From contig OZ006978.1 in assembly GCA_963931155.1 (NCBI GenBank), positions 1,428,692-1,492,691 on the forward strand: a stretch of DNA of 64,000 bases, in the 5' to 3' direction. Source of the stretch: an uncultured Clostridia bacterium. GTDB lineage: Bacteria > Bacillota > Clostridia > TANB77 > CAG-508. The notes beneath the pieces were generated by a model. That model was given only the letters and a program-made list of their open reading frames with translations, was not told the DNA's origin and made no database searches. Every line of letters begins with the position of its first letter. The first letter of the stretch is position 1. The translations under genes were made by a program, and so were the position numbers. Shown here piece by piece: positions 61,456 through 64,000 of the stretch.

Positions 61456-61770
61456 AAAAGAAAATATTCTTAAAAAATGCCAGATATATATGAAAATGTA
61501 AAAAATAAATGAATAAGTTTTTACATTTTCTTGACATAGTACAAAAAATACAGTTTTACATGGATTGTTTAGAAGGAAAATTATTTAATTTTAGGGACAA
61601 TGTAACAGGATTGGAAGCAGATTCAATATTAGAGTTTAGTAATGGAGAATATGCCATAGTACAAATGTGCCATTGGAGACAGACCCTTTTGGCATTCGTT
61701 TATTCATGATAGAATATATTAAAAAAATTATATAAAAAATTAAAAAATAATGCTAAAATTAAAAAAGTTA

Positions 61771-61779
61771 TGGTATAAT
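61771..61779 (+). promoter_or_regulatory. Extended -10 (TGgTATAAT) upstream of the orphan (AC)n leader
   Basis: Read from the sequence. The -35 is weak. Confidence 0.35.
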
Positions 61780-61813
61780 AATTTTGATAAAAAGAAGAAA
61801 GGAAAAAAGAAAA

Positions 61814-62044
61814 ATGAGCAAGCTTGAAAGCCTTGGCGCTGTACACACACACACACACACACACACAATATGTTCTTACCAAAAGGAATGTTGGAAACAA
61901 AGTACAAGAATAGATAGAAGATTCTTCGAAGGAAGAATCCTATTAAGCATGCTTACAATAAATAATTATATAGATAACAAAGGTAAAACAGGGATAGACT
62001 GTATTACTGTAGGTGTTCGAAAAAGAGCACTTATGGCAATATAG
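61814..62044 (+). CDS. Orphan leader-peptide ORF containing (AC)12, encoding (HT)n and reading into its own terminator
   Basis: ATG with an AG-rich RBS. The peptide is MSKLESLGAV(HT)n..RRFFEGRILL..GKTGIDCITV..*. It has the same hairpin and terminator modules as the copy-2 and copy-4 leaders. Confidence 0.45.
   Translation: MSKLESLGAVHTHTHTHTICSYQKECWKQSTRIDRRFFEGRILLSMLTINNYIDNKGKTGIDCITVGVRKRALMAI
61843..61867 (+). repeat. (AC)12 microsatellite
   Basis: Direct reading of the sequence. Confidence 0.95.
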
Positions 62045-62057
62045 CCTATCCTTTTTT
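61991..62057 (+). terminator. Leader-associated intrinsic terminator (GGGATAG...CCTATCC then T6)
   Basis: The same outer stem as in the copy-2 and copy-4 leaders, with a different inner helix. Confidence 0.6.
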
Positions 62058-62207
62058 GTGCTTATTTTTCTGAAATGAAAATAAATACATCACTAGACAA
62101 GAAAAAGTTTAATACGGAAATTAAGAAAATCACGTAATACAACTAAAAAGAGAAGCTAAAAAAAGCTTGAAAAACAAGGAAAAAGAAGAAAAGGAGACTA
62201 GAAAGAA

Positions 62208-62429
62208 ATGGTAAGACTTGAAAACCGCACGGCTCTAGAGAGAGAGAGAGAGAGAGAGAGAGAGAGAGGTACATTATTAAATAACAGATTCTTCGGAAGA
62301 AGAATCCTATTAAACATGCCTCAAAACTTTAATAGAATAGATAAGTTAATTACAGGGATAGACTGGATCACTGTAAATGTTAGTAAAAGAAACATTTATG
62401 GTGATATGGCCTATCCTTTTTGCGTGTGA
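62208..62429 (+). CDS. Leader peptide ORF (73 aa) with (AG)16, reading through the terminator (copy 4)
   Basis: RBS AAGGAG. The peptide is MVRLENRTALE(RE)n..RFFGRRILL..TGIDWITV..AYPFCV*. Confidence 0.5.
   Translation: MVRLENRTALERERERERERGTLLNNRFFGRRILLNMPQNFNRIDKLITGIDWITVNVSKRNIYGDMAYPFCV
62236..62267 (+). repeat. (AG)16 microsatellite in the copy-4 leader
   Basis: Direct reading of the sequence. Confidence 0.95.
62355..62421 (+). terminator. Composite intrinsic terminator/attenuator in the copy-4 leader (near-identical to 39795-39861)
   Basis: The same nested stems followed by TTTTT. Confidence 0.7.
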
Positions 62430-62485
62430 AAAGTAAGTGTTTAAAGAAAAATAAGAAATCAAAAGCAGAAAGGAATTGAGGTATA

Positions 62486-64000
62486 GTGAGAAAAGATAGA
62501 ATAAATAAAACACAAGTAAATAATAAAAAGAAACGTAAAGAAAAGAGAGGATTGAACAATAAAGGAAAAGGCAAAAGAATAAATGTAAAGAACTTGCCAA
62601 CATTTATATTGATAGGACTAATCTTAATGATAATCATAATAGCAATAATCTATTATGTGTTTTTAAGGTATGCACCAGAACAAATAATAACATATAGTGG
62701 ATATGCAATAGAGGGACAAGCATTAGCAGAAAACTTAAAAAATAGTGACATATCTAATGTTAAGCCATACTTAGATTTAGTAGAAGTACAAGAAAACGAT
62801 TTATTGTATAAACGATTAAATTCATATTATGTAGGAGAAGATGATAAAAAAGAGATAGATATTAACTATCCTATATACATAAATGAAGGAAATGCTCTTT
62901 TAAACATAGGAAAGGACACAAAATTAATAACAGTAAATTATGAAGAAGTAGAAGGATATCCAGAGTTCATGATGACAGATGGAGTAATGTATAATGGAGC
63001 AGATTTAACAAGAGCAGACGGGAATAAATATATATTCCTAAAAAGTGAAGATGAAATTTTCACAAATGTGGGAAAGATAAAAATAACAACTGCTACTAAC
63101 ACTTACGACATAAAAGAATTTAGTAATATATATTTTACAGAGAACTCAATTACATATTATGAAATGGAAGAAGATTCAAATGTACAAAATTGGTATATGA
63201 AATATAAAAGAATAGATGATATAGATAATAATTCGAAGATAGAAGTAAAAGGAGAAACTATTTCATACAAAACATTTCTAGAAAGATTAGGTTTAATAGA
63301 CTCAGAAGAAAACGTAAACAATACTGATAAAGAAAAAACAACAAACGAGATAAGTGAAAACACAGTAGAAAAACCAGAGCAAGTAAATGAAGAAAGCTCA
63401 GCAAATGAAAACAATAATGCTACTACTGGAACAACAGAAGGCAAAGAAGAAAATCAAGAATCAGAATGGCAAGAAGGAATGTGGGAAAAACCAGAAGTAA
63501 GTTGTACAGACTTTGAAGGAGAAGTATATACAATAAGAACAAATTTATCAGTAAGAGATAGAGCAGGAGTTATAACAAGAGGAATAACATTTGAAATATA
63601 TCTAGATGGAAGATTAAATAGAAGAGTACAAGCTAACCAAGCAGGAACACTAGAAATAACAAACTTACAACCAAGTTCAGAATATGAGATAAGAGGAATA
63701 TTCTATTACAATGATGAAAACGGAGTAGAACAAGAAGAAGAGTTCTACACAGGAAAAGTAACAACAAAATCAATAGATACATTAGGAACACTAGATTTTA
63801 GATTCCAAAATGGAAAGATATATTCAAATAAAATAGAATTAATACATCTAAAGCTAAATAACAATATAGATGAAGAAGTAGTAAGAGGAATATCAAGAGT
63901 ACAAGTAGAAATAGGAGATGTAGCATATAGATTAACAAATGCACAAATAGATGAATTAAAAGCAGGAAAAGAAATAACATATCAAACAAGTGAAAACTTA
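62486..64000 (+). CDS. Giant GLUG-repeat surface protein, paralog 4 (5' part; it runs off the window end)
   Basis: GTG start with a GAGG RBS (identical context to 39926). The N-terminus MRKDRINKTQVNNKKKRKEK..NLPTFILIGLILMIIIIAIIYY and the homologous N-terminal domain are present. The frame is open to position 64000. Confidence 0.75.
   Translation, partial: MRKDRINKTQVNNKKKRKEKRGLNNKGKGKRINVKNLPTFILIGLILMIIIIAIIYYVFLRYAPEQIITYSGYAIEGQALAENLKNSDISNVKPYLDLVEVQENDLLYKRLNSYYVGEDDKKEIDINYPIYINEGNALLNIGKDTKLITVNYEEVEGYPEFMMTDGVMYNGADLTRADGNKYIFLKSEDEIFTNVGKIKITTATNTYDIKEFSNIYFTENSITYYEMEEDSNVQNWYMKYKRIDDIDNNSKIEVKGETISYKTFLERLGLIDSEENVNNTDKEKTTNEISENTVEKPEQVNEESSANENNNATTGTTEGKEENQESEWQEGMWEKPEVSCTDFEGEVYTIRTNLSVRDRAGVITRGITFEIYLDGRLNRRVQANQAGTLEITNLQPSSEYEIRGIFYYNDENGVEQEEEFYTGKVTTKSIDTLGTLDFRFQNGKIYSNKIELIHLKLNNNIDEEVVRGISRVQVEIGDVAYRLTNAQIDELKAGKEITYQTSENL

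Follow-up and report, generated by a model that had tools for sequence, protein, structure and literature searches.

Giant gene 4 is preceded by a single extended -10 and by two homologous leader modules in tandem, and we consider it likely that each of these modules is a phase-variable, ribosome-mediated transcription attenuator, which is wired twice in series in front of the same gene. Transcription of the giant gene probably depends on random changes in the repeat number of the dinucleotide tracts within the leaders. SSR phase variation is usually read out via translation of the product or via promoter spacing, and a search of the literature found a read-out by leader peptide and terminator described, and experimentally shown, for the pili of S. 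gallolyticus only.

Two leader modules in tandem upstream of giant gene 4

The window, which is the whole analysed stretch of 64,000 nucleotides, contains at positions 61771-62485 of the + strand one extended -10 and two homologous modules in tandem, followed by the GTG of giant gene 4. Both modules have an RBS, an ATG, a dinucleotide tract, a two-frame stop trap, a short hairpin (H1), a long hairpin and a T-run in common, and such a cassette, with the leader ORF and the end of the T-run as its limits, measures about 210-250 nt. In detail, the region is composed of the following elements:

61771-61779, + strand: extended -10 TGGTATAAT, by sequence reading the sole promoter-like element for both modules
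61814-62044, + strand: leader ORF 1, 76 aa, ATG at 61814, TAG at 62042-62044, AGGA Shine-Dalgarno at 61800-61803
61843-61866, + strand: (AC)12 slippery tract as read from the sequence, (His-Thr)n, stop-free in all frames
61911-61917, + strand: two-frame stop trap TAGATAG of module 1, with the ends of the short frames 9 and 5 nt ahead of H1
61920-61939, + strand: H1 of module 1, GATTCTTC-GAAG-GAAGAATC, 8 bp, -10 kcal/mol
61990-62057, + strand: predicted terminator 1, 27-bp interrupted hairpin GGGATAG...CCTATCC with T6, fold energy -33.0 kcal/mol
62058-62207, + strand: inter-module spacer of 150 nt with a conserved GCTTGAAAAACAAGG motif and the AAGGAG Shine-Dalgarno of leader 2 at 62191-62196
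62208-62429, + strand: leader ORF 2, 73 aa, ATG start, own Shine-Dalgarno, stop TGA
62237-62268, + strand: (AG)16 slippery tract as read from the sequence, (Glu-Arg)n
62278-62284, + strand: two-frame stop trap TAAATAA of module 2, 9 and 5 nt before H1
62287-62306, + strand: H1 of module 2, GATTCTTC-GGAA-GAAGAATC, based on fold and covariation
62354-62421, + strand: predicted terminator 2, long hairpin with T5, fold energy -27.3 kcal/mol, based on fold and covariation
62486-64000, + strand: 5' portion of giant gene 4, which starts with GTG after a GAGG Shine-Dalgarno (62478-62481) and has a basic N-terminus and a TM helix; the gene continues past the window end

The elements that the sequence-only reading had described, namely the extended -10, the ORF coordinates, the (AC)12 and (AG)16 tracts, the hairpin, the GGGATAG..CCTATCC-T6 terminator and the 150-nt gap, were all recovered at their positions. 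The first module, which had been called an orphan, is instead the promoter-proximal member of a two-module series. We assigned module 1 to a class B, in which the leader stop (TAG) lies inside the 3' arm of the terminator hairpin, and module 2 to a class A, in which the leader stop (TGA) is located 8 nt beyond the T-run. Dinucleotide tracts of at least five units are found only five times in the 64 kb, all of them 5'-terminal in or upstream of the four paralogous giant genes. Together with the fold z-scores and the open-frame statistics given below, this places the arrangement far outside of what chance would produce. A search of the whole window against Rfam at gathering thresholds matched no family, and at E <= 1 the region 61700-62520 gave just sub-threshold noise from miRNA hairpins (E-values 0.3 and 0.85).

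The giant genes are ORFs of 7-9.5 kb for single membrane-anchored proteins, and the other three copies in the window carry the same type of element:

28659-28703, + strand: copy 1, leader start and (AG)8 tract inside the giant ORF, out of frame at present
39654-39869, + strand: sister single module before giant gene 2, with (AG)13 at 39683-39708, H1 at 39727-39746 and the T-run end at 39861
50934-50996, + strand: copy 3, leader start and (AG)17 tract inside the giant ORF, out of frame at present

The counterpart of leader start, tract and stop trap in copies 1 and 3 is, by homology, their true N-terminus, and judged by their sequence these two copies are cases of classical translational phase variation with the tract within the ORF. 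We also looked for an in-ORF repeat in gene 4 and found none, as the leader ORF ends at 62429 and stops occur in all frames before the GTG at 62486. A fusion of leader and giant ORF by frameshift was rejected on the basis of these stops; gene 4 cannot fuse with the leader because an in-frame stop is located two codons upstream of the GTG.

Promoters, tandem loci and the module family

The motif TGnTATAAT is located 40-140 nt upstream of the leader ATG in 12 out of 12 first or single modules at distinct loci, whereas none of the four second modules has a -10-like site (TGnTAnAAT or TATAAT) within 200 nt upstream, where only the upstream terminator is present. This pattern agrees with the earlier proposal of two switches in series, and by sequence the series wiring is supported at four independent tandem loci. 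At the locus of gene 4 a promoter scan of the + strand of the spacer 62058-62207 revealed no site, and none was found in the 64-nt gap between terminator 2 and the start codon of the giant gene.

The comparative set consists of 15 distinct modules from this organism and from relatives with about 80% identity, which are paralogues and orthologues and not independent samples. The modules are kept across these 15 diverged copies in more than one species and AC-type copies are present at three or more further loci, which bears out the suggestion that the module is a general device. The search in relatives, which had been recommended together with this suggestion, yielded further copies as well as tandems in both orders, AC->AG and AG->AC. 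The tandem architecture is polymorphic, with AC-AG, AC-AC and AG-AC arrangements and differing spacers. Furthermore, the start of leader 1 resembles that of other AC-type leaders (M[ST]KLESLGAV), with homologues in L031, L040, L043 and L047. A scan of genome contigs returned one relative only, "uncultured Clostridia bacterium BRZ_MF__bin81"; four other contig matches (L001, L003, L005, L007) were rejected as chance hairpins in unrelated genomes without similarity to the window. The module motifs had 0 matches in JGI metagenomes and IMG/VR and, among the sets scanned, ENA and Logan assemblies and one GTDB MAG were the only ones with the lineage. Metagenomes with this strain include ERZ21549425, ERZ21549450, ERZ24773324 and ERZ28614519.

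Reading frames of the leaders

In all 15 modules two of the frames stop 2-10 nt 5' of H1, whereas the third one continues without a stop over 116-140 nt, up to a point within the terminator or shortly behind it. Relative to the T-run end, the stops of the short frames are located at a distance of 130-144 nt on the 5' side and that of the long frame between -13 and +8 (15/15 modules); the latter is found either 6-8 nt beyond the T-run (class A) or 12-13 nt ahead of its end (class B). The position of the stop trap is identical in all AG-type modules and also in the in-ORF copies 1 and 3. The long frame of leader 1 needs (AC) n = 0 mod 3 and that of leader 2 (AG) n = 1 mod 3, and both leaders are at present in the sole frame that reaches their terminator, as the sequence-only reading had noticed. 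Across the modules 0 stops are found in the open frame compared to 92 and 77 in the other two, and an open frame of such length has a probability of P = 0.003-0.008 given the composition; these statistics indicate that the frame is selected as open. In module 1 the 44 nt from tract to trap are stop-free in every frame (P about 0.02 against random window segments and 0.001 against shuffles), and the fact that AC-type modules are open in all three frames over this distance fits a need to bring the ribosome to H1 in every phase.

A frame that is kept open could also point to a product, and the leader ORFs would then be functional, phase-variable micro-proteins of about 70 aa, with hairpin and T-run ending their transcripts and the giant gene being independent. 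The ORF is indeed open, conserved and annotated by gene callers, and the protein database contains 21 homologues in ENA metagenome assemblies. However, the leader peptide has a pN/pS of 0.90 and no third-position bias (37/38/28 variable sites by codon position), whereas the N-domain of the neighbouring giant-gene paralogue is under purifying selection with a pN/pS of 0.15 and 39/24/106 variable sites. Amino-acid changes in the leader follow base-pair compensation, e.g. RFF->KFF together with I->T, a search of the leader ORFs for Pfam domains gave no match, and the stretch from the T-run to the start of the giant gene is the one in which no promoter was found. On the basis of pN/pS and the codon-position statistics we rejected functional micro-proteins, which we hold to be very improbable, and the comparison of the sequences indicates that selection does not act on the leader peptide. 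Due to indel-like oddities in their modules, L012 and L046, both long-read assemblies, were excluded from these coding tests and from the covariation analysis.

Conserved hairpins in the leader RNA

The RNA of the modules folds with z-scores of -5.6 to -7.6 against shuffles. Taking the 8 bp of H1 and the 27 bp of the long hairpin together, 98.9% of cells are paired across the 15 modules, compared to 45-54% in slid controls; for H1 the value is 99.2%, with compensatory changes in two pairs. In total, six pairs show compensatory double changes (17 cells), a value that was reached by 0 of 500 shuffles. The structure can be assigned to the sense RNA because of the many G.U pairs, and this pattern of sequence change indicates that the RNA structure is under selection. 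In addition, CTATCCTTTTT is invariant in 15 of 15 modules, even in those of class B where it is untranslated, and the same holds true for a T5-6 run directly after the long stem. With predicted energies of -27 to -33 kcal/mol, the long hairpin together with the T-run looks like an intrinsic terminator. An antiterminator pairing between the H1 flank and the 5' arm of the terminator was considered and rejected, as by inspection only about 4 bp are possible.

A long hairpin of this kind might also act after transcription, in such a way that an untranslated leader forms a 27-bp duplex which is cleaved by RNase III or alters mRNA stability, and that translation of the long frame prevents this. As a stem of at least 20 bp is sufficient for RNase III, the 27-bp stem is a plausible substrate, and an SSR-dependent switch in H. 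influenzae is reported to require an RNase III-targeted 5'-UTR element (PMC12721329). Nevertheless, we regard post-transcriptional action as unlikely: the T-run that follows the stem in every module, untranslated ones included, is what characterises an intrinsic terminator, RNase III does not require it, and the S. gallolyticus precedent works through termination.

The conservation of structure and frame also bears on the question whether the modules have a function at all. They could be debris, i.e. 5' fragments of giant genes that were duplicated and left behind when paralogues recombined or underwent gene conversion, with the tract variation as neutral microsatellite noise. The homology to the N-terminus of copies 1 and 3 would be expected from such an origin, and so would the polymorphic tandem architecture, which implies frequent recombination. 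In contrast, the open frame, the stop geometry, the compensatory pairs and the invariant T-run have been retained in 15 diverged copies from more than one species, and the promoter pattern (12/12 versus 0/4) is non-random. We consider debris highly improbable.

Variation of tract length

The tracts are hypervariable. Look-ups were done via neighbour genes and are thus unconditioned on the tract, while look-ups by the leader protein were discarded as evidence for variation, since they are conditioned on tract length. The (AC) tract of module 1 has 9, 10 or 12 units across samples with identical flanks, and (AC) tracts at three other loci show one-unit differences between samples (15 vs 16, 16 vs 15, 15 vs 14). 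For the (AG) type we used the sister module of copy 2, which is nearly identical to that of copy 4, as a proxy for population variation. Between identical flanks its tract has 11, 13, 14 or 18 units across samples, and although tract lengths are taken from consensus assemblies, some of them long-read with possible repeat miscalls, the short-read assemblies alone give 11, 13, 14 and 18. The (AG) tract of copy 4 itself varies between divergent alleles only, with 16 units here, 14 in L015 and 13 in L047. Neither a look-up with the exact leader of copy 2 (P0005) nor one with the ATPase that precedes copy 3 gave a match. The expectation that both tracts are slippery is thus substantiated by length differences despite identical flanks, in the case of (AG) via the sister tract of copy 2.

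Tract length could in principle act at the DNA level and without any translation, by H-DNA or Z-DNA or by spacing effects on transcription. Non-B DNA is possible for (AG)n.(CT)n as well as for (AC)n.(GT)n, but the two repeat types differ in the DNA structure that they form and are nevertheless found in the same architecture. Moreover, neither tract is placed between or beside -35 and -10, the arrangement of promoter-spacer SSR phase variation; the (AC) tract starts 64 nt and the (AG) tract 458 nt downstream of the -10. A DNA-level effect would leave the mod-3 geometry of the stops unexplained; we consider it highly improbable and the least probable of all explanations.

Proposed mechanism of the switch

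For the two modules as attenuators we propose the following sequence of events. Transcription would start at the extended -10 (61771-61779) and a ribosome would translate the leader ORF across the dinucleotide tract. Slipped-strand mispairing during replication would change the tract by 2 nt per unit, and as a result the leader of a given cell would be in one of three frames. In two of them (OFF) the ribosome would be released at the stop trap 5-9 nt before H1, so that the long hairpin and the U-run could form behind RNA polymerase and lead to termination. In the third frame (ON) the ribosome would translate through H1 and into or through the terminator, and the polymerase would read on as the 5' arm is occluded by the ribosome. 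Transcription-translation coupling is often weak in Firmicutes, so occlusion of the terminator by the ribosome is not guaranteed. We assume that H1 is most likely a pause or synchronisation hairpin which lets the ribosome catch up with the polymerase; this is a conjecture and the weakest step of the model.

As both modules are in series behind a single promoter, full expression of giant gene 4 would need both tracts in phase, i.e. the (AC) tract at n = 0 mod 3 and the (AG) tract at n = 1 mod 3, as is the case in this window. This would result in a stochastic AND gate that is ON in about 1/9 of its states and, if the terminators are leaky, has up to four expression levels, which is the sense in which the combinatorial or graded control suggested earlier may apply to the two tracts. 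Serial stacking would thus provide a natural two-input stochastic gate on very costly genes.

A wider reading is that the module is a portable phase-variation cassette, which is stacked in series to form multi-bit stochastic logic, here an AND gate in which about 1/9 of the states are ON and leakage is very low. The conserved pause hairpin would force ribosome-polymerase coupling in a Firmicute, recombination would shuffle the cassette among paralogous giant surface-protein genes and give each gene its own switching probability, and the same SSR would be read out translationally in copies 1 and 3 and transcriptionally in copies 2 and 4. We give this reading slightly less than an even chance. 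If it holds true, these modules would represent the first SSR attenuator of a serial type, and also the first RNA family that has been defined for such a mechanism. The multi-copy family allows RNA structure and frame geometry to be defined by comparison, and paralogues with a plain in-ORF tract in the same window offer a built-in evolutionary comparison. Furthermore, the cassette could be of use as a stochastic switch that can be tuned, and for probing how transcription and translation are coupled in Firmicutes.

Comparison with known systems

Classical in-ORF SSR phase variation is represented by the CTCTT repeats of Neisseria opa and the CAAT repeats of H. influenzae lic1, where slippage in a 5' coding repeat toggles the frame, and copies 1 and 3 use exactly that scheme. 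In copies 2 and 4, by contrast, several elements lie between the repeat ORF and the giant ORF, namely stops, two hairpins, a T-run and a new RBS with start codon, which argues that the readout of the frame is transcription read-through rather than translation of the product.

Ribosome-mediated attenuation is known from E. coli pyrBI, where the leader ORF runs through the terminator, and from the trp and his leaders. As proposed here, a ribosome close behind the polymerase blocks the terminator and a pause hairpin, the suggested role of H1, synchronises both; trp attenuation is also discussed by Danne et al. (PMC3894217). In these systems the input is UTP or charged tRNA, whereas the modules would respond to a heritable stochastic frame state and have no antiterminator as alternative structure.

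A stochastic, heritable switch in the 5' leader that governs premature termination of transcripts for surface structures is likewise not restricted to repeats. C. difficile cwpV is a DNA-inversion switch with an intrinsic terminator. Phase-variable Rho-dependent termination by DNA inversion has been described for the C. difficile flgB switch and E. coli fim (PMC12360218). These switches depend on site-specific recombinases and inverted repeats, while the modules would use SSR slippage and translation.

The closest counterpart is the SSR leader-peptide attenuator of S. gallolyticus pil1/pil3, which is genetically proven (Danne et al., 2014; PMC3894217). Long leader peptides that stop within or after the terminator (-28 kcal/mol) correspond to ON and short ones to OFF (PMC3894217). 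Both systems share an SSR within a short leader ORF that has an RBS and a start codon of its own and precedes surface-structure genes, a predicted intrinsic terminator between leader and structural gene without a promoter-like site thereafter, a frame-dependent stop either far upstream of or within/after the terminator (15/15 modules here) and a repeat number that is polymorphic in nature, out-of-frame changes included. As the principle has already been demonstrated in pil1/pil3, the module is no new mechanism, and due to the different repeat unit, the pentanucleotide GCAGA in pil1 versus the dinucleotides AG and AC here, we treat pil1 as a mechanistic analogue only and not as a family member. 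In addition, one in three frames would be ON here compared to two in three in pil1/pil3, and unlike pil1/pil3 the targets are single giant membrane-anchored proteins of uncultured low-GC Clostridia. What is new relative to pil1/pil3 are the dinucleotide repeats, the extra conserved H1 and the two-frame stop trap in a fixed position at its base, the serial wiring of tandem modules behind one promoter and the paralogues with the same tract inside the ORF. The pil-type logic would occur independently in uncultured low-GC Clostridia, with a different class of repeat.

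Organization of the double leader upstream of giant gene 4

The region between 61771 and 62486 precedes copy 4 of the four paralogous giant surface-protein genes in the window, and re-reading of the sequence recovered every element that the sequence-only reading had described there. It holds two modules, each consisting of a leader ORF with a dinucleotide tract (AC-type or AG-type), a stop trap, a short hairpin (H1) and a long hairpin with a T-run:

61771-61779, extended -10 element TGGTATAAT, read from sequence
61814-62044, leader ORF 1 (76 aa), downstream of the extended -10
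61843-61866, (AC)12 tract in leader ORF 1
61920-61939, H1 of module 1 (8 bp), GATTCTTC-GAAG-GAAGAATC
61990-62057, long interrupted hairpin of module 1, GGGATAG...CCTATCC, then T6 (-33.0 kcal/mol)
150 nt, inter-module spacer
62208-62429, leader ORF 2 (73 aa)
62237-62268, (AG)16 tract in leader ORF 2
62287-62306, H1 of module 2, counterpart of module 1 H1
62354-62421, long hairpin of module 2 with T5 (-27.3 kcal/mol)
62486, GTG start of giant gene 4

The module folds in the window are 5.6-7.6 SD below shuffles. Only five dinucleotide tracts of at least five units exist in the whole window, and each marks the 5' end of one of the four giant genes. Most AG-type modules, and copy 3, have a conserved motif GCTTGAAAAACAAGG ~30-45 nt before the leader ATG. 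It is a 4-bp mini-hairpin containing TTGAAA and is located at 62160-62180 here; examples among the loci that we retrieved (L001-L047) are L004 7298-7315 and L006 5310-5325.

The giant genes use the common leader start and tract in two ways. Copies 1 and 3 show classical in-ORF phase variation: start codon, (AG)n and TLLNN lead without interruption into the transmembrane helix encoded by the giant ORF, and both copies (n = 8 and n = 17, respectively) are out of frame at present. Copies 2 and 4 have this start and tract as well, but here ~150 nt with the two hairpins and the T-run intervene, and after a stop the giant ORF begins anew, with an RBS, a start codon, a basic N-terminus and a transmembrane helix of its own. 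Therefore, the leader is a separate upstream ORF and not the N-terminus of the gene. Fusion of the leader to giant ORF 4 is excluded by stops in all frames and by an in-frame stop two codons before the GTG. The giant proteins (copy 3 at 51047-60592) have a transmembrane helix at both termini and numerous GLUG-like repeats ('VGG(L/I)xG...NCY'); compared with Pfam, these repeats gave faint Glug and fn3 matches only and no confident family.

Distribution, promoters and tandem order of the modules

Using the leader ORF as protein query we obtained 21 homologues, all in ENA metagenome assemblies, and together with contigs reached via neighboring genes the collection comprises 47 loci, in which an nhmmer scan identified 51 module instances, with 18 distinct sequences among them. 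When GTDB genomes were scanned with the motif, one MAG ('uncultured Clostridia bacterium'), ~80% identical to the window, proved to have three modules, each 5' of one of three paralogous giant genes. No Rfam family was found for the module. In L012 (4262-4422) and L046 (9744-9895), long-read assemblies of loci also covered by other samples, the modules are disturbed by a single inserted nucleotide or by scrambled sequence and the giant ORFs are fragmented; these are probably assembly errors, but may be real decay alleles.

The tandem order is AC-AG in the window, L031/L032, L043-46 and L047, and AG-AC in L040-42. L015 has a tandem with a different spacer, and L014, close to a contig end, is possibly AC-AC, a low-confidence assignment. 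Each of the 12 distinct modules that stand first or alone has TGnTATAAT 40-140 nt 5' of its leader ATG, whereas none of the four distinct second modules has a -10-like hexamer within 200 nt upstream, where only the upstream T-run is found (window included). Therefore, the second module depends on read-through of the first. The proposal of two leader switches in tandem is supported, and with both tandem orders occurring and the module recurring in the genome and in relatives, so is the idea of a general device.

Frame geometry and conserved RNA structure

Every module has a stop trap (TAAATAA in the AG-type, TAGATAG in the AC module of the window) that ends two of the three post-tract frames 2-10 nt 5' of H1; the third frame is open for 116-140 nt. 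This long frame stops 6-8 nt past the T-run in class A (including window copies 2 and 4) and 12-13 nt before the T-run end, in the 3' arm of the hairpin, in class B (including the window AC module). Over 15 distinct modules the open frame contains 0 stops vs 92 and 77 in the other two (P = 0.003-0.008 per module, given composition). AC-type modules have 42-44 nt from tract to trap without a stop in any frame (P ~0.02 from random window segments, 0.001-0.007 from shuffles), so ribosomes in every phase reach the foot of H1.

RNAalifold on 15 modules returned H1 (8 bp) and a 27-bp hairpin, with 98.9% of cells paired and compensatory double changes in six pairs (17 cells); none of 500 shuffles reached these values, and slid controls were 45-54% paired. 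Frequent G.U pairing assigns the structure to the sense RNA. The leader open frame has a pN/pS of 0.90, with 37/38/28 variable sites by codon position; in the giant-gene N-domain of the same loci pN/pS is 0.15 (39/24/106). Open frame, paired hairpins and this pN/pS together indicate selection on frame openness and pairing and not on the peptide, and a functional micro-protein is rejected by the pN/pS. Recombination debris as the origin of the modules is likewise rejected, by the kept geometry, base pairs and promoter pattern.

Variability of the tracts

Copy-2 and window AC tracts were looked up via neighboring genes, so that retrieval was not conditioned on the tract. With identical flanks, the copy-2 tract has 11 units in L020, L026 and L028, 13 in the window, L023 and L024, 14 in L022, L025, L027 and L029, and 18 in L021; short-read assemblies alone give 11, 13, 14 and 18. 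The AC tract has 12 units in the window, L011 and L012, 9 in L014 and 10 in L015 and L016, two contigs in this comparison ending within the tract. AC tracts elsewhere, at loci retrieved through the AG leader, show single-unit differences from sample to sample (15 vs 16, 16 vs 15, 15 vs 14). The copy-4 AG tract has 16 units in three probably related assemblies vs 14 and 13 units, both in a divergent allele. Length heterogeneity was found between samples for AC and copy-2 AG, and for copy-4 AG only against a divergent allele.

Neighborhood of the giant genes

The segment 22312-28452, immediately 5' of giant gene 1, carries an F1-like ATPase cluster that lacks F0 genes. Three uncharacterized ORFs flank its ATPase genes:

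23184-24542, alpha-like gene
24532-25305, gamma-like gene
25349-26737, beta-like gene

It scores high, below cutoff, against the NCBIfam mycoplasma gliding (MMOB1660/1670) and MSC_0618/0619 F1-like ATPase families, and the beta-like gene narrowly attains the atpD cutoff. An 'F1-like X0' ATPase beside giant surface proteins outside Mollicutes may merit separate study.

Defence or toxin-antitoxin-type genes (an MNT/HEPN pair, AAA_14/DUF4143 ATPases; AbiEi/AbiEii in relatives) regularly lie between giant genes just 5' of modules, at 60657-61410, 38164-39471 and 49487-50701 and at 8080-9494 in L031/L043. Compared with L016-L018, the 66-aa ORF at 61509-61709, 5' of the promoter of the AC module, is a deletion remnant; other samples have ~180 nt extra and a 70-aa ORF at this site. 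5'-UTR hairpins GCCATTGG...CCTTGGC are located 3' of the copy 1 and copy 3 promoters (28596-28630, 50766-50800). The center in copy 3 resembles the copy 1 center in reverse complement (GACAGTGAAGTGAC vs TTCACTTCACAGAC), and the promoter of the AC module is preceded by a related hairpin (61655-61690). The pattern may be due to chance or may reflect a very small invertible or palindromic element.

Proposed mechanism and comparison with known systems

The most economical reading is frame-set attenuation. Slippage in the tract would set the leader frame; in two frames the ribosome would come off the RNA at the base of H1 and the terminator would form (OFF), and in the third it would translate into or through the terminator and block its formation, allowing transcription of the giant gene (ON). 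With two modules in series, gene 4 would require n = 0 mod 3 for AC and n = 1 mod 3 for AG, and both phases are present in the window (n = 12 and n = 16). We infer termination, its relief by translation and a pause or synchronization role of H1. A read-out through RNase III or mRNA stability is possible, but CTATCCTTTTT is invariant, including class B modules with an untranslated T-run, and the invariant T-run favors termination. If the tracts instead acted through DNA structure, the mod-3 geometry would be left unexplained, and AG and AC tracts form different DNA structures.

For frame-set attenuation the principle has been established genetically in S. gallolyticus pil1/pil3, where a leader (GCAGA)n sets the stop upstream of, or within/after, the terminator and ATG, stop and delta-terminator mutants show the predicted phenotypes (PMC3894217). 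The literature searched yielded no further described examples, and the mechanism class is already known and not categorically new. As in pil1/pil3, repeat number in the leader peptide places the stop relative to the terminator, but the window modules use dinucleotide repeats instead of GCAGA. New are an independent family built on such repeats, the fixed stop trap and extra conserved hairpin in each module, serial stacking behind one promoter in either order, coexistence with in-ORF versions of the leader tract, and giant surface proteins of an uncultured Clostridia lineage as the proposed targets.
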